The translations under genes were made by a program, and so were the position numbers. 32,000 bases of DNA from Buchnera aphidicola str. APS (Acyrthosiphon pisum). Lineage in GTDB: Bacteria; Pseudomonadota; Gammaproteobacteria; Enterobacterales; Enterobacteriaceae. Each line of letters starts with the position of its first letter. The first letter of the stretch is position 1. The notes below the pieces were generated by a model, which did not search any database, was not told the origin of the DNA, and saw nothing but the letters and a program-made list of their open reading frames with translations. Shown here piece after piece: positions 1,294 through 31,764 of this stretch. The stretch is taken from the NCBI RefSeq assembly GCF_000009605.1, contig NC_002528.1, forward strand, positions 240,001 to 272,000. Direction: 5' to 3'.

Positions 1294-2366
1294 CAACATA
1301 CCTTTAAAGAAATGAGACTTATGAGTAACAATATTAGTGACACAATCCAAAATCTTACGATAATCAAAGGTTCTAATATTCCTTTGACTTCATAATGGTG
1401 GTGAACTGGTGCCATTTGAAAAATTCTTTTTTTTCTTATTTTAAACGATATAATTTGTAATATCACAGATATTGTTTCAAAAACAAAAATACCACCCATG
1501 ATAATTAGTAGTAATTCTTGATGTAATAATATTGCTATAGCTCCTAAAGAACCACCTAATGCTAGTGATCCAACATCTCCCATGAACACTTTTGCTGGAT
1601 AGCTATTAAACCATAAAAAACCTAATCCTGAACCAACAATTGCCATACATAATATAGCTAGTTCTGTTGAATTTTTTACATATTGAACATGTAGATAATG
1701 TGAGATATTTATATTGTCGCTAAATAAAGATATTAATGTCAAACCACAAGTTAAAAAAATAACTGGCATAATAGCTAAACCATCTAATCCATCTGTTAGA
1801 TTAACTGCATTACTAGTGCCAACTAGTACAAAATAAGAAAGAAATATATATAAATAGTTTATTTCAAAATCATTCTTTATACAAAAGGGAATTATTAATT
1901 CAGTAGAAATAATATCTTTATTGTTTATCTTAATCATACAGATGAATATGAAAGCAATAATAGATAAAAAAAAATATTTCCATTTTAGTTTTAATCCTTG
2001 ACTATTTTTATACTTTATTTTTTTATAATCATCTATAAAACCTATTAAGCCATATCCTATTAAAATACTTATGACGTACCAAATATAAATATTGGATAAA
2101 TTACAGTATAGTATTGTCGAAAACAATATAGAAAAAATTATAAAAATTCCACCCATGGTAGGTGTGTTTTTTTTTGAATAATGTGTTTTTGGCCCATTAT
2201 TTCGTATAATTTGATATGTTTGTAATTTTTTAAAGTAATATATAAAATATGGCCCAATATATAGATTGATAAAAAAAGAAGTTAATAAGCTAAATATTGC
2301 ACGATATGGAATATAAGAAAGAATATTTAAATTTATATGTAAATATTTATTAAAAAAAATTAGCAT
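1293..2366 (-). CDS. mraY: phospho-N-acetylmuramoyl-pentapeptide transferase MraY
   Basis: 357-aa polytopic membrane ORF with MraY signatures NAVNLTDGLDGLA and VFMGDVGSLALGG. Length is close to the E. coli enzyme. dcw synteny holds, and the start overlaps the murF 3' end by 7 nt. Confidence 0.96.
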   Translation of the reverse strand: MLIFFNKYLHINLNILSYIPYRAIFSLLTSFFINLYIGPYFIYYFKKLQTYQIIRNNGPKTHYSKKNTPTMGGIFIIFSILFSTILYCNLSNIYIWYVISILIGYGLIGFIDDYKKIKYKNSQGLKLKWKYFFLSIIAFIFICMIKINNKDIISTELIIPFCIKNDFEINYLYIFLSYFVLVGTSNAVNLTDGLDGLAIMPVIFLTCGLTLISLFSDNINISHYLHVQYVKNSTELAILCMAIVGSGLGFLWFNSYPAKVFMGDVGSLALGGSLGAIAILLHQELLLIIMGGIFVFETISVILQIISFKIRKKRIFQMAPVHHHYEVKGILEPLIIVRFWIVSLILLLISLISLKVC

Positions 2367-3727
2367 TTTTTTTTGCTCTCCTTAATAAGATCTTCTACTA
2401 CTTTTTCCATTTTTGTACTACGAGATCCTTTAACTAATATGGTTATTTTTTTTTTCTTTAAAAAAACATTTTTTAAATATTCGCTTAATTTTTTTTTATT
2501 TAAAAAATGTTTGCCATTATTAAAAATTTTAGTGATTTCACTACTCATATCACCAATGCTAAAAATTTTATTAATTGCAGATGAATTAGCAGTATTTCCT
2601 ATCATTTGATGATACATCATACTGTTTTCTCCTAATTCGGCCATATCTCCAGTTACTAATATTTTATAACCTGGCATTCTTTCTAAAACTTTTATTGCTG
2701 AAATCATAGATGAAACGTTAGAATTGTAGGTATCATCAATTAAAATTTTATTGGGTTCTAGTATAATAGACTCTAATCTTTTTGAAACAATAGGTGTGTC
2801 CAATAGTCCTATTTTTATTTTTTTTAAAGGTATTTTAAGCGCAAATGAAAAGGCACTAGCTGCTAATGCATTAGATATGTTTTGGTAACCTAAAAACGGT
2901 AATGAAATATTTATTTTTCCACACGGTGTATGCATCGTAAAAGATGTGCCATGTATATGAATTTTAATATTACTACAAAAAAAATTACTATATTTTTTTT
3001 TTTTAATAGAAAAGAACAAAATATTACTGTTCTTTATGTCTTTTTTCCATTGTGAAAAATGATGACTATCTAAATTAATAATAACTGTACTATTAGGTTT
3101 TAAACCAGAAAATATTTCTGATTTTGCTTTAGATACTCCTAATAATGATTTAAATCCTTGTAAATGAGCACAATGAATATTATTAATTAGTATAATATCT
3201 GGTTGACTGATATTACTAGTATAAGCAATTTCGCCCGGTTTACTCGCACCTAATTCAATCACACCATATTTATGTTCTTGTTTTAATTGAAGTAAAGTCA
3301 TTGGAACACCAATATTATTGTTTAAATTATCAATAGTAGATATTGTATTCCCATTTTTCCTAAGTATAGAGGCCGTCATTTCTTTTACTGAGGTTTTTCC
3401 ACAAGAACCGGTAATAGCTAATATTTTTGCCTTAGTTTTTTTGCGAACCCAGCCAGCAATTTGACCTAACGCAATAGAAGTATTTTCCACTATAATATAT
3501 GGAACATGGGGTTTTATATTTTTTTGTGTAACAAATGCAGCACACTTTTTTTTTAAGGCATCGTGTATAAAAATATGAGCATCAAATTTTCTACCTATTA
3601 AAGCAATAAAAAGACAACCTGGAATAATTTTTTTAGTGTCTATGACAATTTCATTTATTAACAAATCTGCTCCATATAGCGTTCCGTTCGTTATTAAAGC
3701 AATTTTTTTTAATGATAAAGAAATCAT
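2360..3727 (-). CDS. murF: UDP-N-acetylmuramoyl-tripeptide--D-alanyl-D-alanine ligase MurF
   Basis: 455-aa ORF with Mur-ligase ATP site ITGSCGKTSVKEM. It lies between murE and mraY, with an ATGA overlap onto the murE stop. It contains in-frame A12 (2993-3004) and A10 (2446-2455) runs. Confidence 0.94.
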   Translation of the reverse strand: MISLSLKKIALITNGTLYGADLLINEIVIDTKKIIPGCLFIALIGRKFDAHIFIHDALKKKCAAFVTQKNIKPHVPYIIVENTSIALGQIAGWVRKKTKAKILAITGSCGKTSVKEMTASILRKNGNTISTIDNLNNNIGVPMTLLQLKQEHKYGVIELGASKPGEIAYTSNISQPDIILINNIHCAHLQGFKSLLGVSKAKSEIFSGLKPNSTVIINLDSHHFSQWKKDIKNSNILFFSIKKKKYSNFFCSNIKIHIHGTSFTMHTPCGKINISLPFLGYQNISNALAASAFSFALKIPLKKIKIGLLDTPIVSKRLESIILEPNKILIDDTYNSNVSSMISAIKVLERMPGYKILVTGDMAELGENSMMYHQMIGNTANSSAINKIFSIGDMSSEITKIFNNGKHFLNKKKLSEYLKNVFLKKKKITILVKGSRSTKMEKVVEDLIKESKKKC

Positions 3728-5217
3728 ATATTTTTTCCTAATAAATTTAATACTATTTTTTTATCTGAATAGTTTATAGATCTATTTTGAATTATTTGTT
3801 TTTCTTCGTGTCCTTTTCCAGCTATTAAAATTATATGATGATATTTTGCTCCGAAATAAGCATAAGATATTGCTTTTTTTCTATCAGGGATAATTAATAT
3901 TTTTTCCTTATTTTTACAACCATTTAAAATATCTTGAATAATTTTTTTTTCTTTTTCATTTCTGGGGTTGTCATTAGTAATGATCACTTTATCTGACATT
4001 TTTTCTGCAATAGCACCCATAATAGGGCGTTTTTTTTGATCTCTTTCTCCTCCGCATCCAAATATACACCATATATATCTTTGGTAATGTGAATGAATGG
4101 CATTAAGTGTTTTTTTTAGTGCATCAGGTGTATGAGCGTAATCGATAATAAAAGTTGGTTTTTTGACATAAGAAAATAATTCCATTCGACCCTGTACTGG
4201 TATTATTTTTTCAGACGTATGGATTAAGTCTGATAAACTATAGCCTAGTTCTAAAAGACAAGCTAATGACAACAGGAGATTAGTGACATTAAAACGTCCA
4301 ATTAAACAAGAGGATATTCTTCCTGTTCCCCAACTAGATTCAAATGTAATATAAATGGAATTATTATTCTGTTCAATATTAGTGGCATTAATCCATTTTG
4401 TAGAATATTTTTTTTGTTTTCTGTTTTGAATAGTAACAGCTACTGTGTAGAAATTAAGTAGTTTTTTTAACCATATTTTCCCATATTGATCATCAGCATT
4501 TAATATAATTTTTTTTACCTTATGTGTACTAAATAATAACCATTTTGCGGATTCATATTTTTCCAAATTTTCATGATAATCTAAGTGATCTTGAGTTAGA
4601 TTAGTGAAAATTGCAATATAAAAAGGAACTTCTTTAACGCGATGTTGTATCAAACCATGTGAAGAAACTTCCATAGTCACTAATTCAGCTTGTTTTTCTA
4701 AGACTTTAGATAAGAATAGTTGAATAAAAATAGGCGAGGAAGTTGTATTATTTGTAGGTTGCAAAGAATTATAAAAACCATTTCCTAAAGTTCCCATAGT
4801 TGCTGTTTTTGTACCTAAAATTGTACTCCACTGATTGATTAATTGTGTTACCGTAGTTTTTCCATTAGTACCAGTTATGCCAATGATTTTTAATCTCTTT
4901 CCTGGTTCTTTATAAAAACGATTTGCTAACAATGATACATTTTCAGATAGTTTAAAAAAGTATATTAGAATAACATTCTTGATATATTTAAATATTCCAT
5001 GCTTATCTTTTTTTTTAGTTTCACATAGAATAGCTGCTGCTTTTTTATTAATAGCTTGAACAATGAAATGACGGCCATCTTTTTTTATCCCCGGAACTGC
5101 TATAAACAAATCTCCTGGAGTTAAAGTTCTGCTATCCATCTTCAAATTTGAAATATATTTTTTTGGAATATTTTTAATCCATGGTAATAATAAATATTTT
5201 AAGCAAATTTTATTCAT
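3724..5217 (-). CDS. murE: UDP-N-acetylmuramoyl-L-alanyl-D-glutamate--2,6-diaminopimelate ligase MurE
   Basis: 497-aa ORF with P-loop GITGTNGKTTV and a DNPR motif (ITNDNPRNE) typical of DAP-adding MurE. The N-terminus LLPWIKN...LKMDSRTLTPGDLFIAVPG parallels E. coli MurE. The start abuts the ftsI stop. Confidence 0.95.
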   Translation of the reverse strand: MNKICLKYLLLPWIKNIPKKYISNLKMDSRTLTPGDLFIAVPGIKKDGRHFIVQAINKKAAAILCETKKKDKHGIFKYIKNVILIYFFKLSENVSLLANRFYKEPGKRLKIIGITGTNGKTTVTQLINQWSTILGTKTATMGTLGNGFYNSLQPTNNTTSSPIFIQLFLSKVLEKQAELVTMEVSSHGLIQHRVKEVPFYIAIFTNLTQDHLDYHENLEKYESAKWLLFSTHKVKKIILNADDQYGKIWLKKLLNFYTVAVTIQNRKQKKYSTKWINATNIEQNNNSIYITFESSWGTGRISSCLIGRFNVTNLLLSLACLLELGYSLSDLIHTSEKIIPVQGRMELFSYVKKPTFIIDYAHTPDALKKTLNAIHSHYQRYIWCIFGCGGERDQKKRPIMGAIAEKMSDKVIITNDNPRNEKEKKIIQDILNGCKNKEKILIIPDRKKAISYAYFGAKYHHIILIAGKGHEEKQIIQNRSINYSDKKIVLNLLGKNI

Positions 5218-7021: not shown

Positions 7022-7090
7022 TTATTTTTTTTGAACTGTAGAATGAATAGATAAAGAATTTTTTTCAATTATTAAATTTCTCCATTCATC
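7022..7090 (-). other. ftsL: out-of-frame conserved 3' segment of ftsL (DEWRNLIIEKNSLSIHSTVQKK*), reachable only with one extra A in the upstream run
   Basis: Hand translation of the minus strand from 7090: GAT GAA TGG AGA AAT TTA ATA ATT GAA AAA AAT TCT TTA TCT ATT CAT TCT ACA GTT CAA AAA AAA TAA (stop 7022-7024). It matches E. coli FtsL ...[21 protein letters not shown].... Confidence 0.75.
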
Positions 7091-7275
7091 ATTTTTTTTT
7101 TTTTTTTTTGAATAACATCTTCTTCTTCTGTAATTAATAATCGAGTATTATAAACTGTAATGATGACTAAGCTAGCTGATAATATAATAGCTATTAATAA
7201 AGTTAAATGAATTTTCCCATATAAAAGAAAATCATTTTTGATGATTTTAGGTAAATCATAACGTTGAATTTTCAT
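7072..7275 (-). CDS. ftsL: cell division protein FtsL, truncated as encoded (67 aa); the reading frame is lost inside an A18 run
   Basis: YDLPKIIKNDFLLYGKIHLTLLIAIILSASLVIITVYNTRLL aligns with the E. coli FtsL TM region (...[40 protein letters not shown], recalled). The ORF then ends KKKKKMMNGEI* straight after the homopolymer. It lies between rsmH and ftsI. Confidence 0.85.
   Translation of the reverse strand: MKIQRYDLPKIIKNDFLLYGKIHLTLLIAIILSASLVIITVYNTRLLITEEEDVIQKKKKKMMNGEI
7092..7109 (-). repeat. 18-nt poly(A) homopolymer inside ftsL (T18 on the + strand)
   Basis: Counted directly: 9 T at 7092-7100 plus 9 T at 7101-7109, flanked by a (7091) and g (7110). Confidence 0.97.
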
Positions 7276-7277
7276 AT

Positions 7278-8216
7278 TTATTCTTGTATTTCTGCGATAC
7301 GAAGTACGGAGCTGCGAGCTCTAGGATTATTATTTATTTCATTTTGTGTAGGTAATATACGATTTATAATTTTTAATTTACATGTTGTTAACCTATTTAA
7401 TTGTTCTTCCGTAATAGGCATTCCGTATGGAATAATTGCTTTTGTGCTGTTTTTAATCATGAATTTTTTTACTAATCTGTCTTCTAAAGAATGAAAACTA
7501 ATAATAGATATACGTCCTCCTGGCTTAAGTATTTTTAGCGTGCTTTCTAAAGCTTTTTGAATTTCTTCTAACTCTTGATTGATATAAATTCTAATTGCTT
7601 GAAAACTCCTTCTTGCTGGATGTTTAAATTTATTTTTTGTTGGTATAGTTTTTTTAATAATGTTGGCTAATTCTAGAGTACTGGTTATTTTTTTTATTTG
7701 ACTTCTACGTTTGATAGCATAAGCTATTTTTCTTGAAAAACGTTCTTCTCCGAAATTTTTTAAAACAAAAGAAATTTCTTTAACATTACTTTCAAAAAGC
7801 CATTCGGAAGCAGAAATTCCATAATTAGGATTCATTCGCATATCTAAAGGGCCGTCATTTTTAAATGAAAAACCTCTTCTATAATCGTCAATTTGTATTG
7901 AAGAAACTCCTAAATCAAATATAATTCCATTTACTTTCCCTATAATTTTTTCATTTTTTGCAAAATCTAATAATTTTGAAAAATTTTCATTAATTATATG
8001 AAAACGTGAATCTTTGATTTCACTTCCTATGGAGAAAGCAATGGGGTCTCTGTCAATAGAATATAATCGACCATTTTGTCCTAATTTTTTCAAAATTTCA
8101 TTTGAATGTCCACCTGTTCCAAATGTACTGTCAATATAAATACCGTTTTTTTTTATTTTTAAAGAATCAATTAGTTCTTTTTTCATTACTGGAATATGTT
8201 TAAATATGTGATTCAT
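7278..8216 (-). CDS. rsmH: 16S rRNA (cytosine1402-N4)-methyltransferase RsmH (MraW)
   Basis: 312-aa ORF with SAM-binding [10 protein letters not shown], plus [11 protein letters not shown] and [17 protein letters not shown] blocks typical of RsmH. It is the first gene of the dcw cluster here; no mraZ lies upstream. Confidence 0.95.
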
Positions 8217-8337
8217 TTTTTAAATATAGACGATATAAAGTAAGAATATAGTACATGGTCATTTCTATTTAAATAACCATGTTTAATATTTTTTAGAAAG
8301 AAGAATGTGAAATGTTATTAATTTAAATTTAAAACAT

Positions 8338-8826
8338 TTATCCCCGAGAAATACCAACAATTCCAGAACGAGTTACCTCGATAATTTCTGAAAAATTACG
8401 TATTATTTTTAAAAAAGCATCAATTTTTTTCGTAGTACCAGACAATTGCAATATATATGTTGCAGATGTTATGTCTACAATTTGCCCTCGAAATACTTCA
8501 GTAATATGTTTTATATCATCTCTTCTATGATTGTTTATCTGAACTTTTAATAATACGATTTCCCGTTCTATATGAGAAGATTGTCCAATTTGTACAACTC
8601 TTAATACATCTATTAATTTATGCAGTTGTTTTTCAATTTGTTCAATAGCTTTTTCATTTCCTACTGTTTGTATAGTCATTTTAGATAAAGTAGGATCTTC
8701 AGTAGGTGCTAGCGTAATAGTTTCTATATTATATCCTCTTTGTGAAAAGAGTCCTATTACTCTTGATAGTGCACCTGATTCATTTTCCAATAAAATAGAT
8801 AAAATTCTTCGCATATTTTTAGGCAA
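8338..8826 (-). CDS. ilvH: acetolactate synthase III small (regulatory) subunit IlvH
   Basis: 162-aa [35 protein letters not shown] is an ACT-domain N-terminus as in E. coli IlvH. The start overlaps the ilvI stop by 8 nt. Confidence 0.95.
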
Positions 8827-10534
8827 CCTCTTTTTTCCTTAGCCGCATTTCATTCATGCCACCCCCTTGAATCTGCATAGGATAAACATGCTCAGAATTA
8901 TCTATTTGAACGTCTACGAACACCAAATGACCATCAGACAATTTACTTAATGCAAGCATTAATTTCTCTTCTAATTCTATAGGTTCAGTAATTTGGATAC
9001 CAAAGTGGCCATAGGATTCTGATAATTTTACAAAATCAGGAAGTGAGTCCATATAAGAATGGGAATGTCGTCCTGAATAAATCATATCTTGCCATTGTTT
9101 GACCATTCCTAAAGAAGAATTGTTGAGATTTAATATTAATACTGCTAAATTATATTGTCGTGCTGTAGATAATTCTTGAATATTCATTTGAATACTGCCA
9201 TCTCCTGTAATACAGATAACAGTTTCTTTGGGCAGGGCTAATTTAACTCCTAATGCCGCGGGTAATCCAAATCCCATGGTACCTAATCCACCTGAATTAA
9301 TCCAACGTCTAGGTTTGTTAAATGGATAATATAATGCAGTAAACATTTGATGCTGTCCAACATCTGATGTGATATAAGACGTTCCTTTTGTGAGTTTAAA
9401 AAGAGTTTTAATAACTGTTTGAGGTTTTATCTTATTACTTAGTTGATTGTATTGTAGACTATTTATTTTTTTCCATTTTTTAATAGTATTCCACCAATCT
9501 TCTAACAGTGAAATTTTCTTTTCTTTTTTTAGTAATTCTATCATTTTTTGCAAGACATGTTTAGCATCTCCTACAATAGGTATATTGGCAGATACAGTTT
9601 TAGAAATAGAAGTCGGATCAATATCAACATGTAAAACAATCGCATTTGGACAGTATTTATTTAAATTATTTGTTGTGCGATCATCGAATCTTACACCGAT
9701 TGCAAAAATAACATCGGCATGATGCATGGTCATGTTAGCTTCATACGTACCATGCATTCCTAACATGGAAATATTTTGATCATGAGTGCCTGGAAAACTA
9801 CCTAATCCCATTAAAGAAGTCGTAACAGGACAGTTGATCTTTTCTGCAAAAATTCTTAATTCTTCACTACTGTTAGAACTAATAATTCCGCCCCCTGCAT
9901 AAATCACTGGTCTTTGAGCTTTTAATAATGTATGCAGAGCTTTTTTAATTTGCCCTATATGACCTTTAGTTGTTGGATTATATGAACGTATATTAATATT
10001 ATCTGGCCATTTATAGAGATATTTATTGTCTTTTTTTAAAATATCTTTCGGTAAATCAATTACTATAGGTCCTGGACGGCCACTAGATGCTAACCAAAAA
10101 GCTTTTTTAAAAACAATTGGTATATCTTCAGTTTTTTTAACTAAGAAACTGTGTTTTACTATTGGACGAGAAATTCCGATCATATCACATTCTTGAAAAG
10201 CATCATAACCGATTAATGAAGAAGCGACTTGTCCTGAAATAACAACCATTGGAATAGAATCCATGTATGCTGTTGCAATACCAGTAATAGCATTAGTTGC
10301 ACCGGGTCCAGAAGTAACTAATACTACTCCAGTTTTTCCAGTAGAACGAGAATAACCGTCAGCCATGTGAGTTGCAGCCTGTTCGTGTCTCACTAGAATA
10401 TGTTCGATTCCACCAACGGTTTTTAGAGCATCATAAATATCTAGTACAGCACCACCAGGATAACCAAATATATGCTGTATTCCCTGATCAATTAATGATC
10501 GAACGACCATTTCGGCTCCTGATAATATTTCCAT
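8819..10534 (-). CDS. ilvI: acetolactate synthase III large (catalytic) subunit IlvI
   Basis: 571-aa ORF of the ThDP-dependent enzyme family, with [14 protein letters not shown] at the N-terminus and ThDP-binding [15 protein letters not shown] strong SD (GGAGG, complement of 10541-10545) lies 6 nt upstream of the ATG. Confidence 0.96.
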
Positions 10535-10849
10535 TTTTTTCCTCCAGGATACTAATTTATTAGGTTGTATTTCCTAGATCTCTATCTATCAGTTTATCCT
10601 GTAGTTCATCTAGATAAAATTAGCACTATTTAGTTTAAAAGATTATAAAAAATTCAAAAAATTTATTTTTAATGTTATGTTTTATTTAAGAAGTCATTTT
10701 AAATGATGTCATGTTTTATTACTATTAAATGAAAAATTAATTTTGATTTTTATTATTGCAAATATATCAGATATTATCAATTAATAGAAAGTATTAAGTA
10801 TTATTTAATGTAATTTAGTTTTTATATGTTGAATGATTGGAATATTTTT

Positions 10850-11907
10850 TTCAACTAAAAATCTTTTAAATTTAGGTGAGATCCATGTTGAAAAAACATT
10901 TTTTTTTTGAGTAATAAGACATACCGCTAATTTCTCTTTTAATGCTAACTTTTGAGCTTTTCTAAAACCTAGTATTAATAATCCTGTATCCCAAGCGTCT
11001 GATTCTAAAGCTGTTGAGGAAATTACACTAACTGAAACTAAATTATGATGTATAGGTTTGCCGCTATGAGGATCAATTAAGTGCGAAATATGTTTTCCTT
11101 CAAGAGAATAATAATTACGATAACTGCCTGCTGTACTGATTGCATTATTCTTTAAATATACAAGTAAGTGTATTGATTTTCTTCTATCAACAGGTTTTTG
11201 AATTGCGATAATTTTATCTTTTCTTGTATTTTTTTCTACTTTGACTAATACAGCTCCTCCTACTGAGATAGTATAATTTTTTATTTTTTTTTTGTAAGTA
11301 TACGTGACAAATGATCTACAGCAAAGCCTTCACCAAGAGTGGAAAGATTAATTTCTATCCCATCTATATCTTTTTCTAGAAACATCCCAAAAGAATTTTT
11401 AATAAGTTTTAAATGTTGACTTCCGGAAAGGAAAATTTTTTCTTTTATTTTTTTTTTAGAAGGATAATGAGTGAGTTTTTCTTTAGTGCCAAATCCCCAC
11501 ATATTAATTAATCGACTAATTGTAATATCTAATTTCCCATTAGTTTTTCGATTAATTTTTAGGGCGGTTGAAATAATTTTAAAAAAATCTTGATTGATTA
11601 TTTGACGCTGATGTTTTTTTAGTCTATTAAATTGAGATACAAGAGAATTTTTCTTCCAAGAAGAAAGCATTTTTTCATCTTCATCTAAATTTTGTTGTAT
11701 TAAATTTTTTATGTATTTTTTATTTTTTAAATTAGGGATCTTGACTTGCCAATATGTACCCATAGTTTTTCCTGTTAATGTTGCAATATTTTGTTTTTCT
11801 CTATCTAAATATCTATTATAAAAATTAACGACTATAAATATAAAAAAAATAAAAACACTGTAAATAATTTTTAAGAACATAAATAATATTATTCTCCTAA
11901 TTAACAA
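10850..11907 (-). pseudogene. apbE: FAD:protein FMN transferase ApbE, frameshifted at an A10 run (N-terminal 208 codons at 11907-11281; C-terminal ~144 codons at 11287-10850 in another frame)
   Basis: The N-terminal ORF (LTGKTMGTYWQVKIP...DITISRLINMWGFG...LSTLGEGFAVDHLSRILTKKK*) matches E. coli ApbE up to ...ADHLARLMEQEG. Hand translation of the next frame gives IKNYTISVGGAVLVKVEKNTRKDKIIAIQKPVDRRKSIHLLVYLKNNAISTAGSYRNYYSLEGKHISHLIDPHSGKPIHHNLVSVSVISSTALESDAWDTGLLILGFRKAQKLALKEKLAVCLITQKKNVFSTWISPKFKRFFS* (stop TGA 10850-10852). This matches the E. coli C-terminal half (ISRYLVSVGGA...GISTSGSYRNYYELDGKRLSHVIDPQTGRPIEHNLVSVTVIAPTALEADGWDTGLMVLG...WMSPQFKSFLV). Confidence 0.88.
11284..11293 (-). 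repeat. 10-nt poly(A) run at the apbE frameshift site
   Basis: The + strand reads tta tttttttttt g (T10 at 11284-11293). The minus strand reads ACA AAA AAA AAA TAA. With 11 A it would read ACA AAA AAA AAA ATA AAA AAT TAT ACT, which joins the two halves. Confidence 0.95.
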
Positions 11908-19979: not shown

Positions 19980-20735
19980 ATGCAGTATAAATATTTATTA
20001 GAATACAACAAAAAAAATCATGAATGTAATCCTTGTCATGTAGCAATTATTATGGATGGAAATGGGCGATGGGCTACTAGACAAGGAAAAATTCGTATTA
20101 TGGGTCATAAAGAAGGTTTTAGAGCAGTAAAAGAAGCAATCAAATTTTCTATTGCAAATAATTTAAAAATATTAACTTTATATGCTTTTAGTAGTGAAAA
20201 CTGGAATCGTCCATTATTTGAAATTAAAGCACTAATGGAATTATTTTTATTTGCGTTAGATACTGAAATTAAAAATTTAAAAAAACATAATATCAGATTT
20301 AAAGTTATTGGTGATATAACATGTTTCGATAAAAAATTACAAAATAGTATTCATTATGCAGAACAAATTACTTTTGACAATACCGGTTTAATTTTAAATA
20401 TAGCAGCAAATTATGGTGGAAGATGGGACATAATTGAAAGCGTTAAAAAAATTATTAATCGAGTGCAGAGAGGAATCTTAGATGTAAATAAAATTCACGA
20501 AAATACTATTTCTCAATATTTATCTACTAGTGAACTTCTTCCAGTAGATTTAGTTATTAGAACAGGAGGAGAAAAAAGAATCAGTAATTTTTTATTATGG
20601 CAAATAGCTTATTCTGAACTATATTTTACTGATGTTTTATGGCCTGATTTTAATTGTCATATTTTTCAACATGCTATAGATTCTTTTGTATCTCGTGAAC
20701 GTCGTTTCGGAGGATTTAAAAAAAATAAAAAATAG
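19980..20735 (+). CDS. uppS: ditrans,polycis-undecaprenyl-diphosphate synthase UppS
   Basis: 251-aa ORF with HVAIIMDGNGRWA, LTLYAFSSENWNRP and RTGGEKRISNFLLWQIAYSELYF motifs. It follows dxr, as in E. coli. Confidence 0.95.
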   Translation: MQYKYLLEYNKKNHECNPCHVAIIMDGNGRWATRQGKIRIMGHKEGFRAVKEAIKFSIANNLKILTLYAFSSENWNRPLFEIKALMELFLFALDTEIKNLKKHNIRFKVIGDITCFDKKLQNSIHYAEQITFDNTGLILNIAANYGGRWDIIESVKKIINRVQRGILDVNKIHENTISQYLSTSELLPVDLVIRTGGEKRISNFLLWQIAYSELYFTDVLWPDFNCHIFQHAIDSFVSRERRFGGFKKNKK

Positions 20736-20968: not shown

Positions 20969-22822
20969 ATGTTAATAAAAAATTTTTTTATAGCTTTTTT
21001 GATGTTTTTTAGTATTTTAGTTCATGCGGAAAATAAATTTATTGTAAAGGATATTCAGTTCAAAGGATTAAAAAATTTTTCGCAAAATGAAGCATTAAAA
21101 AACATTCCTTTTAGGATTGGAAGTACAATATCTCAATATGATGTAAAAAATAGTATCAAATCTTTGTTTAAAACGGGAAAATTTGAAGATATTAAAGTGT
21201 CATTTTTAGGAAAAACTATTGTCTTTAATATTAGAGAAAGACCGATTATTTCTAACGTCATTGTTTCTGGTAACCATATTATTGCCAGTTCTGTTTTAGA
21301 TCCGTATCTAAAAAAATTAAATATTGAAACAGGAAAATCATTTAATAATTTTTTTACTAATGTATTAACTAAAACGATAAAAGATTTCTATCTTGATATT
21401 GGGAGATGCAAACCCGATATAAAAATATTAAAAATTTTTTCTAAAAACAACAGTGTTAGTATAAAAATACTCATTAATGAAGGAACAGAAATAAAAATTA
21501 ATAGTATTAAAATACTCGGCGTTCAAGCCTTTTCTAAAGAAAAAATTCTTTCATTATTCAAATTGCAAGATTATCATTCTTGGTGGAATTTATTAAGTAA
21601 ATCTACTTATTCTCCAAAAGAATTAAATAATGATTTAGAACATTTAAAAAATTTTTATTTGAGTAATGGGTATTATTATTTTAATGTAAACACTAAAAAA
21701 GTAGATTTTTTGCAAGATAAAAAACAGGTGGATATCACAATAGGTGTTTCTGAAGGAAAGAAATACAAAATTTCCAATTTTTTTGTCAATGGAAATTTAT
21801 TCCCATATCAAAAATTAATTACAAATTTAATTAATATTAATCCTAATGAATTTTATAATCGAGACAAAATTGATATTATAGTAAATAAAATAACAAGATT
21901 TTTATCTGAATATGGATATGTTAATACTAAAGTTATAGTTGACCCGCAAATTGATCATAAAAAGAAAACAATAGCCTTAAATTTTAATATTGATATGAAA
22001 AAACGTTATTTTGTAAAAAGAATTTATTTTACAGGGAATGAAATAACTCAAGATAGAGTTTTACGTCGTAAAATTAAACAAATGGAAGGTAAATATTTTA
22101 ATACAAAATTAGTAGAATTAGGTAAAAAACTATTAGAAAAAACAAAATATTTTAGTGATGTAAAAATCATTCAAAAATTAAATTCTTATGATTCTAATCA
22201 AATTGATATTACCTATCAAGTTAAAGAACAGACTACTGGTTCTATAAATTTTGGTTTAGGATATGGAGTAGATAGTGGTACCAGTTTTAATCTTGCTTTT
22301 TCTCAAGATAATATATTTGGTTCTGGAAATTCTTTAAAAGTCGATATTATTAAAAATGATTATCAAAAATACCTTGATATATCAACAAGTTATCCATATT
22401 TTTTTTATAATAATGCAGATTTAAATGCCAGATTTTTTTACAATGATTTTAAATATAATTTTGACAATATTTCGAATATTATAAAAAATACATATGGTTT
22501 TGAAGGTAATTTGGGATTTTTAATTAATAATTATAATAAGGTAAATTTTGGATTTGGATATACACATAATAGTATTAATAATGAAGAGAAAAAAATACAT
22601 GGTAAGTTTACAGGTGAATTAAATATAAATAAATTGTATTATTTTGTAGGTGTAGACGATACTCGTTTTAAAAAAATCGCAATACCAGGTGATCAAATAT
22701 TTATAAAAGTAACTATTTTAAAATCTAATAAAAATATTTTAATTTTTAAAAATATAGCTGTAGTAAATAATGATATTATTTGTAAATCTAAAATTGTTTT
22801 TGCTAAAAAATACTTATTTTAA
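20969..22822 (+). CDS. bamA: chimeric ORF: BamA (signal peptide, five POTRA domains, about the first 115 residues of the beta-barrel) fused in frame to a FabZ C-terminal remnant; probably a decaying bamA
   Basis: aa 1-~538 are collinear with E. coli BamA residues 1-~540, ending at TGSINFGLGYG...NFGFGYTHNSINN against TGSFNFGIGYG...RAGLGYVHNSLSNM. The remaining ~270 barrel residues are absent and the ORF continues as FabZ-like sequence. 617 aa, against about 810 in E. coli. Confidence 0.85.
   Translation: MLIKNFFIAFLMFFSILVHAENKFIVKDIQFKGLKNFSQNEALKNIPFRIGSTISQYDVKNSIKSLFKTGKFEDIKVSFLGKTIVFNIRERPIISNVIVSGNHIIASSVLDPYLKKLNIETGKSFNNFFTNVLTKTIKDFYLDIGRCKPDIKILKIFSKNNSVSIKILINEGTEIKINSIKILGVQAFSKEKILSLFKLQDYHSWWNLLSKSTYSPKELNNDLEHLKNFYLSNGYYYFNVNTKKVDFLQDKKQVDITIGVSEGKKYKISNFFVNGNLFPYQKLITNLININPNEFYNRDKIDIIVNKITRFLSEYGYVNTKVIVDPQIDHKKKTIALNFNIDMKKRYFVKRIYFTGNEITQDRVLRRKIKQMEGKYFNTKLVELGKKLLEKTKYFSDVKIIQKLNSYDSNQIDITYQVKEQTTGSINFGLGYGVDSGTSFNLAFSQDNIFGSGNSLKVDIIKNDYQKYLDISTSYPYFFYNNADLNARFFYNDFKYNFDNISNIIKNTYGFEGNLGFLINNYNKVNFGFGYTHNSINNEEKKIHGKFTGELNINKLYYFVGVDDTRFKKIAIPGDQIFIKVTILKSNKNILIFKNIAVVNNDIICKSKIVFAKKYLF
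22595..22822 (+). pseudogene. fabZ: 3' remnant of fabZ (last ~76 codons of 3-hydroxyacyl-ACP dehydratase), lacking the catalytic N-terminal half
   Basis: KIHGKFTGELNINKLYYFVGVDDTRFKKIAIPGDQIFIKVTILKSNKNILIFKNIAVVNNDIICKSKIVFAKKYLF* aligns without gaps to the recalled E. coli FabZ C-terminus [76 protein letters not shown]. About 29 of 76 positions are identical and both stop at the same position. The 5' boundary is approximate (22580-22603). Confidence 0.8.
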
Positions 22823-22858: not shown

Positions 22859-25800
22859 ATGAATGAACCAAAATTTATTCATCTTCATGTACATAGTGAT
22901 TACTCAATGATTGATGGATTATCAAAACCTGAAGATTTAGTTAAAAAAGCAGCATCTTTAAATATGCCGGCTATAGCTATAACTGATTACAATAATTTAT
23001 ATGGTGTAATTAAATTTTATAATATGGCTCATAAACTAGGTTTAAAACCTATTATTGGTATTACAGTAAATTTTTTTTCTGATTTGATAAATAATCAATT
23101 AACAAAATTAACTTTATTAGCCTCCACTCAGGAAGGATATAAAAATTTAATTTTATTAATTTCTCGTGCATATCAAAAGGGATATGTTCATAATAATCAT
23201 GTTACTATTGAAAAAAAATGGTTTTCAGAAATTAACAAAGGATTAATATTACTTTCTGGTGGCCCTCAGGGTGAACTTGGAAAAGTTTTGCTTAATGGTC
23301 AATCATCATTGATATCTATTTGTTTGTCATTTTATCAAAAGTATTTTCCGGATTCTTACTATTTAGAATTATTTCGTACAAACCGAGATAATGAAGAGAC
23401 ATATTTACATTTAGCTGTAGATTTATCTTTATCTACAGGAGTTCCTATTGTTGCTACTAATGATGTTTGTTTTTTAAGTCAAGAAGATTTTAAAATTCAT
23501 AAAATTAGAATTGCTATCAATGAAGGTGAAATATTACAACATTCTAAAATTCAAAATAATTATAGCAACCAGCAATTTTTAAAAACTACGGAAGAAATGT
23601 CTGATCTTTTTTCAGATATTCCAGAAGCACTTATAAATAGTGTAGAAATTGCAAAACGCTGCAATGTATTTATACATTCCGGAAAATATTTTTTACCTCA
23701 GTTTCGAACTGGAAAAATAAGTGTTGAAAAATATTTAATTAAAGAAGCTTATAAAGGTATAAAAAAAAGATTAAACTCAAGATATCTAGATATTGAAAAA
23801 TATAAAGATATTTACAGTCAGTATATCAACCGTTTAGATATGGAATTAACTGTAATTAACAAAATGGGTTTTCCTGGATATTTTTTAATTGTTATGGAAT
23901 TTATACAATGGGCAAAAGATAATAATATACCAGTAGGACCAGGACGAGGTTCTGGTGCAGGTTCTCTTGTAGCATATGCTTTAAATATCACAGAAGTAGA
24001 TCCATTATCTTTTAATCTTTTATTTGAAAGGTTTTTAAATCCAGAACGTATTTCTATGCCTGATTTTGATATTGATTTTTGTATGGAAAAACGTGATCAA
24101 GTAATTGATCATGTTTCAGAGATATATGGTAAAAATGCAGTAGCACAAATTATTACCTTTGGAACATTAACTGCAAAAGCTGTTATTAGAGATGTAGGTC
24201 GAGTTTTAGGATATCCATATGGATTTATTAATAAACTATCTAAGTTAGTACCTTTAGATCCCGGGATAACTTTAAAAGAAGCTTTTTCCAAGGAATCTGA
24301 ATTATTCAATTTATATAAAAATAATGAAGATGTTAAAAATTTAATTGATATTGCTAAAAAATTAGAGGGTACAAATAGAAATATTGGCAAACACGCAGGG
24401 GGAGTGGTTATTTCACCTACTAAAATTACTGATTTTTGTCCATTATACTGTGATGAAAAGGGAAATAATCCAGTAACTCAATTTGATAAAAATGATATAG
24501 AATATATAGGATTAGTAAAATTTGATTTTCTTGGTTTACGCACACTAACTATTATTAGCTATGCGGTAGAAATGATTAATACAAAATTAAATCTGAATAA
24601 AAAAAGAACAATAAATATTAATTCAATTCCTCTTGATGACGCTAAATGTTTTAAATTATTAAAAAATTCTGAAACTACTGGTGTGTTTCAATTAGAATCT
24701 TATGGGATGAAAGATTTAATTAAAAGATTACAACCTGATTGTTTTGAAGACATGATCGCTTTGGTTGCACTTTTTAGACCAGGTCCTCTACAATCTGGAA
24801 TGGTCGATAATTTTATTAATCGAAAACATGGACGTGAGAACATTTCATATCCCGATCATAAATGGCAACATATATTATTAAAACCTATATTAGAATCAAC
24901 ATATGGAATTATATTATACCAAGAACAAGTAATGGAAATAGCTCAAGTTTTGTCAGGTTATACATTAGGTAGTGCAGACATTTTAAGACGAGCTATGAGC
25001 AAGAAAAATTTAAAAGATATGTCAGAACAACGTGCTATATTTGAAGAAGGAGCCTCAAATAATGGTATCGATAAAAAATTATCTATAAAAATTTTTGATT
25101 TACTAGAAAAATTTGCAGGATATGGATTTAATAAATCTCATTCTGTAGCTTATGCTCTAGTTTCCTATCAAACTTTATGGTTGAAATCACATTATCCTGC
25201 GGAATTTATAGCTGCAGCTATGACATCTGATATAGATAATACAGAAAAAATTGTTATTTTAATTAATGAATCTCTAAATATGGGGGTAAAAATTATCCCT
25301 CCAAACATTAATTTAAGTAAATATGAATTTTATGTAAATGATCAAGGTGATATAGTTTATGGTCTTGGTGCTATCAAGGGTATAGGCAAAAATTCAGTGC
25401 AAGTTCTTATTAAAGAACGTGAAGAAAATAAATTTTTTCATGACTTATTTGATCTTTGTATGCGAATTGATTCTCAAAAGATAACCCGTAGAGTTTTAGA
25501 AAAATTAATTATGTCTGGTAGTTGTGATTGTTTTGATAAAAATAGAAATTATTTACTTCAATCAATTGATGATGCTATAAATGCGTCAAAAGAATCTTTT
25601 AGAATAAAGTCTTTTAAACAAGATAGTCTTTTTGGTATTTTTCAAAATGAGTTAAATCAAGTAAAAAAAAATAATCTTGTTAATTTAGTCTGCCCTGAAA
25701 AAAATAAATTACAAAACGAATATCAAGTATTGGGATTTTATCTTACAGGACATCCTATCAATCAATATAAGAAAGAATTAGAATGTTATGTAAATGGTGT

Positions 25801-26344
25801 AAAATTATCACAGTTAAAATTCATCAAAAGAAACAAGAAAATTTTAGTAGCAGGAATAATTGTTTCTATCAAAATAAAAATAACAAAAAATAAGAATCGT
25901 ATAGCTATTTTGGTATTGGACGATAATACTAGCCGTTTAGAAGTTGTGATTTTTACAGAATTATTAAATGCATATGAGTCTCTTGTAAAATTAAACAAAC
26001 TATTGTTTGTTCACGGTATGTTAAATGTCAGTTTCATTGATAAAAATATTAAAATGACGGCCTATGCACTTATAGATTTAAGTGTTTTGAGAAAAAAATA
26101 CATAAATAAACTAATAATTATATTAAATAAAGAGAAAACAAACATATTTTTTTTAAATAATTTATACGAATGTTTAGATAAACAATCTAAAGGTAATATT
26201 CCTGTTTTTATTTTTTTCGATAATAAAGAAGTATGTTTAAATAAAAAATTAAATAAAAAATGGTTTGTTGTAATTACTGATGATTTTTTAAATAAATTAA
26301 AATTTTTAGTAGGATCTAAAAACATAGAATTAAAATTTAATTAA
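22859..26344 (+). CDS. dnaE: DNA polymerase III alpha subunit
   Basis: 1161-aa ORF (E. coli 1160). It has the PHP domain FIHLHVHSDYSMIDG, the polymerase core PDFDIDFC and GLVKFDFLGLRTLT, and an OB-fold C-terminus. Confidence 0.98.
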   Translation: MNEPKFIHLHVHSDYSMIDGLSKPEDLVKKAASLNMPAIAITDYNNLYGVIKFYNMAHKLGLKPIIGITVNFFSDLINNQLTKLTLLASTQEGYKNLILLISRAYQKGYVHNNHVTIEKKWFSEINKGLILLSGGPQGELGKVLLNGQSSLISICLSFYQKYFPDSYYLELFRTNRDNEETYLHLAVDLSLSTGVPIVATNDVCFLSQEDFKIHKIRIAINEGEILQHSKIQNNYSNQQFLKTTEEMSDLFSDIPEALINSVEIAKRCNVFIHSGKYFLPQFRTGKISVEKYLIKEAYKGIKKRLNSRYLDIEKYKDIYSQYINRLDMELTVINKMGFPGYFLIVMEFIQWAKDNNIPVGPGRGSGAGSLVAYALNITEVDPLSFNLLFERFLNPERISMPDFDIDFCMEKRDQVIDHVSEIYGKNAVAQIITFGTLTAKAVIRDVGRVLGYPYGFINKLSKLVPLDPGITLKEAFSKESELFNLYKNNEDVKNLIDIAKKLEGTNRNIGKHAGGVVISPTKITDFCPLYCDEKGNNPVTQFDKNDIEYIGLVKFDFLGLRTLTIISYAVEMINTKLNLNKKRTININSIPLDDAKCFKLLKNSETTGVFQLESYGMKDLIKRLQPDCFEDMIALVALFRPGPLQSGMVDNFINRKHGRENISYPDHKWQHILLKPILESTYGIILYQEQVMEIAQVLSGYTLGSADILRRAMSKKNLKDMSEQRAIFEEGASNNGIDKKLSIKIFDLLEKFAGYGFNKSHSVAYALVSYQTLWLKSHYPAEFIAAAMTSDIDNTEKIVILINESLNMGVKIIPPNINLSKYEFYVNDQGDIVYGLGAIKGIGKNSVQVLIKEREENKFFHDLFDLCMRIDSQKITRRVLEKLIMSGSCDCFDKNRNYLLQSIDDAINASKESFRIKSFKQDSLFGIFQNELNQVKKNNLVNLVCPEKNKLQNEYQVLGFYLTGHPINQYKKELECYVNGVKLSQLKFIKRNKKILVAGIIVSIKIKITKNKNRIAILVLDDNTSRLEVVIFTELLNAYESLVKLNKLLFVHGMLNVSFIDKNIKMTAYALIDLSVLRKKYINKLIIILNKEKTNIFFLNNLYECLDKQSKGNIPVFIFFDNKEVCLNKKLNKKWFVVITDDFLNKLKFLVGSKNIELKFN

Positions 26345-29681: not shown

Positions 29682-31764
29682 TTTTTCTTCTCTTTTACGT
29701 ATTGTAAAAAGTTTAAAAACAACTCAATGGCAAATACTTGCTGGTCCAATACTTATTTTAATGATCTTATCAATGATGGTTTTACCATTAGCCCCCTTTG
29801 TTTTAGATGTTTTTTTTACTTTTAACATTGCTTTGTCAATAATAATTTTACTTGTTTCTATGTTTACGCGTCATACTTTAGAGTTCACTGCTTTTCCAAC
29901 AATTTTGCTTTTTTCTACATTGTTGCGTTTAGCTTTAAATGTGGCTTCTACTCGTGTTATTTTTTTAAGAGGTCACACAGGCACCAATTCAGCAGGAAGA
30001 GTAATTGAATCGTTTGGTCATTTTTTAGTAGGTGGTAATTTTGCTATTGGAATAGTGGTATTTATAATCTTAGTTATTATTAATTTTATTGTTATTACAA
30101 AAGGTGCTAGCAGAATCGCGGAAGTTGGTGCTCGATTTATATTAGATGCTATGCCAGGGAAACAAATGGCAATAGATGCAGATTTAAATGCAGGTTTGAT
30201 TGGGGAAGAAAAAGCTAAAAAACGTCGTATAAAAATTACACAAGAAGCTGATTTTTACGGTTCTATGGATGGTGCTAGTAAGTTTGTACGTGGAGATGCA
30301 ATTGCTGGCATTTTAATAATGGTCATTAATATTTTTGGAGGTTTAATTATTGGCTTAATACAACATCATATGTTCTTAAACAAGGCAGTAGAAGTCTATA
30401 CTTTATTAACTATCGGAGATGGTTTAGTTGCTCAAATTCCAGCTTTAGTTATTTCTACTGCAGCAGGTGTGATTGTAACACGTGTAAGTAGCAATCAAAA
30501 CGTTGGAGAACAAATGGCAAGTCAATTATTTTATAATCCTCAAGTTATTTTATTAAGTGCGATAGTATTAGGAGTTCTTGGTTTAGTTCCAGGAATGCCA
30601 AATATTATCTTTTTAGTATTTACAGTTTTATTATTTATTCTTTCTTGGTGGTTGTATGAAAAAAAATATGATCTAGAAAATGATTTTATAAAATCTAATA
30701 AAAAATATAAATTTATACATGATGCCATCTCAGAAGCATCTTGGAATGATGTTGAATTAGAAGATCCAATTCGAATAGAAATAGGTTACAAGTTAACACC
30801 AATGACTGATATTAATAAAAAAGGTGACTTATTAGATAGAATTCGTATAGTTCGTAAAAAAGTTGCTCAAGAAATTGGTTTTTTACCTCCATTAGTACGT
30901 ATTAAAAACAATATGCATTTATCTGGAAATTCTTATCGTATTTTTATTAAAGGTGTTGAAGTAGGTCAAGGAAAGTGTTTTTATGGACGTTTTATGGCGA
31001 TTCATTCAGGCCGTGAAACAGAATCTTTGCCTTTTGAAAAAGTATATGAACCTACTTTTGGTTTATCTGGCTATTGGATTGATGAAGAATTTAAAAATAA
31101 AGCTCAAAAAAAGGGTTATTCTGTTATAGAATCTAGCGTTGTACTTTCAACACATTTAAATTTTTTAATTACTAATCATATTGATGATTTATTTGGTCGT
31201 CAAGAAGCTCAACAATTGTTAGAACGCGTTACGATAGACCATCCAAAATTAACTGAAGATTTAATTCCAAATACAATTAATTTAACCATTTTTCATAAAA
31301 TTCTTAGAAATTTATTATTAGAACATGTTCCAATACGTGATATGAGAACTATTTTAGAAACATTATCTGAACATGCGGATACTCAAAAAGATCCTAATGA
31401 ATTAACTAGTATCGTGCGTATTGCATTAAGAAAAATTATTATACAAAAATTATTTAATCAAAACAATATTATCGAAATAATAGGACTAGAACCTAATTTA
31501 GAACGATTATTACTAAATAGTTTAAAATCTGGAACTGATACTATAGAACCTAATTTATCTGAAAATTTGTTAATACAAACAAAAGAAGCGATCAAAAAAC
31601 AATTGTTAATAGGTTCTCCTCTAGTGTTATTAGTCCGTCATTCTTTACGATATTTTTTATCAAAATTTTTACGTCAAAATTTTCCAGAACTAACTGTTTT
31701 GTCTCAATTTGAGATTATAGATGTAAAAGAAATAAAAATGACTAATATTATTGGTACTTCATGA
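29665..31764 (+). CDS. flhA: flagellar type III export gate protein FlhA
   Basis: 699-aa ORF. TQWQILAGPILILMILSMMVLPL, GARFILDAMPGKQMAIDADLNAGLIGEE and LLTIGDGLVAQIPALVISTAAGVIVTRVS are near-identical to E. coli FlhA. The start overlaps flhB by 17 nt. Confidence 0.97.
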   Translation: MKLMINFSSLLRIVKSLKTTQWQILAGPILILMILSMMVLPLAPFVLDVFFTFNIALSIIILLVSMFTRHTLEFTAFPTILLFSTLLRLALNVASTRVIFLRGHTGTNSAGRVIESFGHFLVGGNFAIGIVVFIILVIINFIVITKGASRIAEVGARFILDAMPGKQMAIDADLNAGLIGEEKAKKRRIKITQEADFYGSMDGASKFVRGDAIAGILIMVINIFGGLIIGLIQHHMFLNKAVEVYTLLTIGDGLVAQIPALVISTAAGVIVTRVSSNQNVGEQMASQLFYNPQVILLSAIVLGVLGLVPGMPNIIFLVFTVLLFILSWWLYEKKYDLENDFIKSNKKYKFIHDAISEASWNDVELEDPIRIEIGYKLTPMTDINKKGDLLDRIRIVRKKVAQEIGFLPPLVRIKNNMHLSGNSYRIFIKGVEVGQGKCFYGRFMAIHSGRETESLPFEKVYEPTFGLSGYWIDEEFKNKAQKKGYSVIESSVVLSTHLNFLITNHIDDLFGRQEAQQLLERVTIDHPKLTEDLIPNTINLTIFHKILRNLLLEHVPIRDMRTILETLSEHADTQKDPNELTSIVRIALRKIIIQKLFNQNNIIEIIGLEPNLERLLLNSLKSGTDTIEPNLSENLLIQTKEAIKKQLLIGSPLVLLVRHSLRYFLSKFLRQNFPELTVLSQFEIIDVKEIKMTNIIGTS

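Follow-up and report, generated by a model that had tools for sequence, protein, structure and literature searches.

The window analysed in this study, a 32-kb stretch with a G+C content of about 26%, belongs to the 640,681-bp genome record of Buchnera aphidicola str. APS (host Acyrthosiphon pisum) of the year 2000 (BA000003/NC_002528). Between uppS and dnaE it holds a single ORF (Table 1), and an exact look-up in the protein collection showed that its 617-aa product is identical to BU237 (BAB12952.1; WP_010896020.1; UniProt P57331), while the same exact product had no match in the contig index. The preliminary description of this locus had read the ORF as the N-terminal part of BamA joined in frame to the C-terminal part of FabZ, and the Pfam, NCBIfam and structure alignments bore out this reading.

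Table 1. Features of the uppS–dnaE interval and positions that distinguish the APS record (window coordinates)
Feature	Position	Strand	Basis
uppS, upstream neighbour as in all relatives	19980..20735	+	ORF list, relatives' loci
Fused bamA–fabZ ORF, 617 aa	20969..22822	+	ORF list; exact-sequence match in protein collection
BamA part: signal peptide, POTRA1-5, about the first third of the Omp85 barrel	20969..22608	+	Pfam, NCBIfam
Deletion junction, ...GGTAAGTT / TACAGG...	22603..22614, break between 22608 and 22609	+	Base-level comparison with both reference flanks
FabZ part: third base of codon 81, residues 82-151, native fabZ stop	22609..22822	+	NCBIfam FabZ profile
dnaE, intact, 36 bp downstream of the fused ORF	22859..26344	+	ORF list; protein identical to AIST DnaE
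Substitution in the BamA part: ACA (Thr379) versus ATA (Ile)	22104..22104	+	AIST and every other A. pisum BamA in the cluster
Private substitutions of the APS record versus AIST	35, 100, 4549, 4566, 11758, 22104, 27941, 28476		

In the Pfam scan, the ORF contained five POTRA repeats (E = 1.4e-53), followed by a match to positions 1-95 of the 325 in the Omp85 profile at aa 448-542, and by a match to positions 78-136 of the 138 in the FabA-like profile at aa 552-606. The NCBIfam profiles gave the same picture, with positions 1-543 of 802 matched in the BamA profile, 1-515 of 741 in TIGR03303, and 76-136 of 137 in the FabZ profile. When the last 79 aa were scanned alone, FabZ similarity was recovered with NF000582 (E = 3.4e-14) and TIGR01750 (E = 6.6e-12); homology searches with the ORF in two halves had been proposed in the preliminary description. 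Against solved structures, aa 435-542 of the ORF paired with residues 435-542 of E. coli BamA, where the alignment ended although the chain runs to residue 810, and the tail aligned to positions 83-150 of the E. coli FabZ chain 6n3p_A (154 residues; E = 3.6e-13), whose positions run about 3 above the native FabZ numbering. The signal peptide was read from the hydrophobic N-terminus of the translation alone and is putative.

To the base, the ORF consists of BamA residues 1-546, one hybrid codon, and FabZ residues 82-151. The BamA part, which comprises aa 1-546 and the first two bases of codon 547, is collinear with positions 8001-9640 of locus L001, from another A. pisum Buchnera, and with positions 2980-4619 of locus L009; after those two bases the sequence passes directly to the last base of FabZ codon 81, so that the hybrid codon (TT plus T) encodes Phe547. 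The FabZ tail proposed earlier was thus recovered, with its limits moved from a switch at about aa 543 and 76 FabZ residues to a junction at aa 547 and 70 residues. In comparison with L001 and L009, one contiguous block is missing (L001:9641-10771; L009:4620-5750), which agrees with the single in-frame deletion that had been postulated. This block measures 1131 bp, or 377 codons, and not the roughly 2.5 kb of the first estimate, and it spans the end of BamA (residues 547-800), the 126-bp spacer and the start of FabZ (residues 1-81). As 1131 is divisible by three, the bamA frame runs on into that of fabZ. On either side of this single gap, the window is 99.6-99.8% identical to the A. pisum loci L001-L008.

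Base-level inspection revealed a blunt junction with no strict microhomology. A 6-bp overlap suggested by BLAST was rejected, as two mismatches fall within those 6 bp. The two ends of the deletion carry an imperfect TAAG(TT/AG) repeat, with TAAGTT on the left and TAAGAG on the right, and slippage between these repeats was likewise rejected, since it would require two extra substitutions. A 36-mer spanning the junction had no match in the genome-contig and metagenome-contig collections.

The best BamA homologue of the ORF, an 800-aa protein (P0001), matches the first 89% of the ORF at 99% identity. From the 18 contigs carrying this protein, eight loci (L001-L008) were taken from Logan, JGI and ENA assemblies, and all of them display the order uppS, bamA (800 aa), a 126-bp spacer, fabZ (151 aa), a 36-bp spacer and dnaE. 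Intact 800-aa bamA and 151-aa fabZ genes were present in all other A. pisum Buchnera assemblies retrieved, among them complete genomes with sizes from 641,716 to 642,122 bp, and across about 40 Buchnera lineages both proteins are conserved in full-length form. A scan of the genome contigs for FabZ relatives returned 478 pattern stretches, none of which was confirmed by tblastn. The more distant neighbourhoods were therefore drawn from exact BamA look-ups, namely those of the Aphis gossypii symbiont (L010:5001-11473) and of a lineage whose BamA is 49% identical (L011:5001-11563). There, as in the A. pisum strains, bamA, fabZ and dnaE are adjacent, and neither skp, lpxD, lpxA, lpxB nor rnhB lies between them. 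Judged from gene order, skp and lpxD have long been absent from Buchnera, because the adjacency is found in the Aphis gossypii symbiont and in the L011 lineage as well; the earlier suggestion that both genes had been lost in the same event as the bamA barrel does not hold for any Buchnera locus examined. The comparison of the bamA–dnaE interval across Buchnera that had been called for thus yielded intact bamA and fabZ in A. pisum, in Aphis gossypii and in L011. As far as the compared sequences reach, the deletion is unique to the APS record.

Several further differences were noted in these alignments. The L011 lineage has an unannotated gap of about 970 bp where other lineages have dxr and uppS. 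In the JGI metagenome contig 3300005264, 124 bp of flhA are missing (L003:18232/18233; window 30069-30192), so that the gene is called as 133 plus 522 aa, and rsmH is shortened to 165 aa (L018:12581-13078); these changes are strain-specific gene erosion in another pea-aphid Buchnera. On the reverse strand of the window, murF and murE (2360-5217) encode 455 and 497 aa, as they do in AIST, versus 458 and 498 aa in other strains, small length differences at the gene ends that are common to the two Japanese sequences. An ApbE-family ORF (11281-11907, reverse strand) has only 199-208 aa in all strains and adjoins a long non-coding stretch (flanks 10535-11280); it may be what remains of a once longer gene.

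To find the sister genome, the exact sequence of the window's own DnaE was used as the probe. The only contig returned with exactly this DnaE was AP036055.1 (641,802 bp) of strain AIST, in which an 800-aa bamA and a 151-aa fabZ lie, both intact, upstream of dnaE. AIST comes from another Japanese pea-aphid line, kept since 1999, and for its genome, 55 long PCR products amplified from aphid DNA were sequenced to a depth of about 3,582-fold (Mizutani et al., 2024; PMC11812322). It is a sister Japanese line distinct from the Tokyo clone of the APS record; derived bases that set the window and AIST apart from other strains, as at position 46, mark the two as true sisters. Over the 32-kb window, AIST (L014 and L009) differs by 8 substitutions, one homopolymer indel and the 1131-bp block, whereas 38-55 substitutions over 17-20 kb separate the window from the other A. 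pisum strains tallied. The 8 substitutions that set it apart from AIST are all private to the APS record, with AIST carrying the base of all other A. pisum strains at each position, and two of them lie only 17 bp apart in murE. Under equal branch lengths, such an 8:0 split has a binomial probability of 0.004, and this asymmetry suggests that the private differences of the 2000 record are mostly residual base errors. The two genome sizes differ by 1,121 bp (641,802 versus 640,681 bp), a gap that corresponds almost entirely to the 1131-bp deletion. A homopolymer at about position 7092 forms a poly(A)/Lys run crossed by the ftsL ORF (7072-7275, reverse strand; 67 aa); the length of this run varies between strains, and FtsL is called with 61, 67 or 83 aa across A. 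pisum Buchnera genomes, which looks like homopolymer slippage or miscounting.

The comparison with AIST also bears on the two halves of the ORF. Their similarity to BamA and FabZ is far beyond chance, because both halves correspond base for base to the intact AIST genes except for the one substitution at 22104. Over the FabZ part, the DNA shows no difference from the intact AIST fabZ (100% identity). The good conservation of a FabZ half cut off from its active site had previously seemed odd and had been taken to imply either a recent event or selection on the fusion. Selection is not needed to account for this conservation, since identity to the sister gene means that no evolutionary time has passed. 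Resequencing that restored the missing sequence had been named as an observation that would overturn the fusion; AIST comes close to this, although it is a sister line from another aphid clone than the Tokyo one.

Taken together, we consider it likely that the deletion is a sequencing, clone or assembly artefact of the year-2000 APS record. The independent assemblies lack the junction, AIST and the eight P0001 loci are intact, and the blunt junction offers no repeat that could have driven replication slippage. The 8:0 asymmetry lends indirect support, as a 1131-bp deletion belongs to another class of error than miscalled bases. The deletion would then have originated in clone-based Sanger shotgun sequencing, for example through a deleted or chimeric E. 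coli clone that bridged a poorly clonable stretch and was accepted by the assembler; we place the artefact at the clone level because the junction has no repeat that could make an assembler collapse the region. The symbiont genome would never have been in the deleted state, and the fusion protein would not be made in the aphid. What speaks against an artefact is that loss of bamA is reported to be tolerated in at least one Buchnera lineage, that of Baizongia pistaciae, from which yaeT (bamA) is reported absent (Charles et al., 2011; PMC3246468), and a real loss of bamA is thus biologically possible. A misassembly and a recent event had both been among the options first listed. A real and very recent deletion specific to the Tokyo APS clone, fixed or heteroplasmic among the genome copies of each cell, is the main competitor to an artefact, and we regard it as unlikely. 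Such a deletion would have arisen by illegitimate recombination, with the frame kept by a one-in-three chance, and would have left a dead fusion pseudogene under no selection. It would account for a clean, single deletion within an otherwise near-perfect sequence; AIST represents a different clone, so the deletion could postdate their split; and other genes, such as flhA and rsmH in the JGI contig, have likewise eroded in individual A. pisum strains. However, it requires the loss of two genes that about 40 Buchnera lineages keep in full, no independent assembly contains the junction, and the other private differences of the record look like errors. Both bamA and fabZ are essential in E. coli, and this knowledge weighs further against their loss. 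Buchnera is moreover not known to have end-joining repair, and the junction shows no microhomology.

That the deletion is not only real but fixed in the Tokyo APS clone, which would mean a viable aphid line whose Buchnera has neither the BamA barrel nor active FabZ, appears quite improbable to us. OmpA and OmpF would still be encoded in that Buchnera (PMC3246468), and Bam-dependent insertion of outer-membrane proteins and FabZ would have to be dispensable, or compensated by the host or by polyploid heteroplasmy. Still harder to accept is a selected, functional fusion, in which a periplasmic POTRA-only chaperone with a FabZ-derived tail replaces canonical BamA; we assign it a very small probability. 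In its favour are an uninterrupted frame of 617 aa and five intact POTRA domains, but one in three chance joins would keep the frame, the fusion is found in no other genome or metagenome of the searched collections, and full-length BamA and FabZ are the rule in Buchnera. Selection on the fusion was rejected on the identity of its FabZ part to the intact AIST fabZ at the DNA level, which leaves no time for selection. The least probable reading, to which we give next to no credence, supposes that pea-aphid Buchnera lost Bam function at an earlier time and throughout the lineage, with skp and lpxD going in the same 2.5-kb event. Nothing beyond the ORF itself speaks for it, and it is refuted by the 800-aa BamA in every other A. 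pisum Buchnera retrieved, AIST included, along with an intact fabZ in all the strains examined, by the 1131-bp size of the deletion, and by the gene order of distant Buchnera, which keep bamA and fabZ in an interval devoid of skp and lpxD.

The fusion itself is already known and published. Citing BuchneraBASE, Charles et al. (2011; PMC3246468) described BU237 (yaeT/bamA) as "truncated and fused with fabZ", and considered this "probably a sequencing error" or specific to the Tokyo clone; in the literature on BU237, P57331 and BuchneraBASE, we found no discussion of the fusion beyond that report. The present analysis adds the exact breakpoints, sets the record against the AIST genome of 2024 and shows that the private differences between the two are split 8:0. 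The same report lists fabZ as missing in BAp in the biotin and fatty-acid route (PMC3246468), an entry that we trace to the fused APS record. The main value of the fusion, which is probably not biological, is therefore one of caution about this reference. RefSeq and UniProt continue to supply the truncated protein under the name 'outer membrane protein assembly factor BamA' (WP_010896020.1, P57331), and the APS record has no annotated fabZ, so that metabolic and envelope reconstructions based on NC_002528 are wrong in treating fabZ as missing and BamA as truncated. For these two genes, the AIST, 5A or Tuc7 genomes are preferable to NC_002528. A real deletion would have a bearing on whether a reduced symbiont can dispense with BamA, but the evidence speaks against one.

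With the full-length BamA of other A. pisum Buchnera (ACL30605.1/WP_009874193.1, 800 aa; AIST BFR92046.1), the ORF shares 99% identity over aa 1-546, including the putative signal peptide, the five POTRA domains characteristic of BamA and the first barrel strands. The barrel of E. coli BamA comprises about 387 residues (about 424-810), of which the ORF keeps about 123, close to the 115 of 385 first estimated, and the complete 16-strand C-terminal barrel is absent. Unlike the full-length protein, the ORF lacks residues 547-800 (254 residues), which are present in all sister strains and contain the C-terminal strands needed for barrel closure; the loop-6 (V/I)RG(F/Y) motif is missing with them, its counterpart NNVRGF lying in the deleted stretch of the AIST protein. 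With FabZ (3-hydroxyacyl-ACP dehydratase, hot-dog fold; E. coli 6n3p), the last 70 residues of the ORF share the C-terminal part, and they are identical to residues 82-151 of AIST FabZ. Unlike E. coli FabZ, the ORF has no residues 1-81, and hence none of the catalytic His54, the catalytic Glu68 or the central hot-dog helix; when AIST FabZ was aligned to 6n3p, the GHF and E-(S/A)MAQ motifs fell at residues 53-72, upstream of the breakpoint at residue 82, as the first reading of a tail devoid of the His/Glu region had anticipated. As predicted from these losses, the fusion, if made, could neither close a 16-strand barrel nor dehydrate acyl-ACP. Whether it is an artefact or a real deletion, the ORF is no evolved fusion protein, because the defining features of both parent families are lost and the frame had a one-in-three chance of being kept. 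It is the same object as BU237 of BuchneraBASE and Charles et al. (2011; PMC3246468), with no difference between them. The Buchnera of Baizongia pistaciae is also reported to lack BamA, but there the loss is lineage-wide and accompanied by loss of OmpA and OmpF (PMC3246468), whereas the deletion described here is limited to one record and the sister strains keep bamA.
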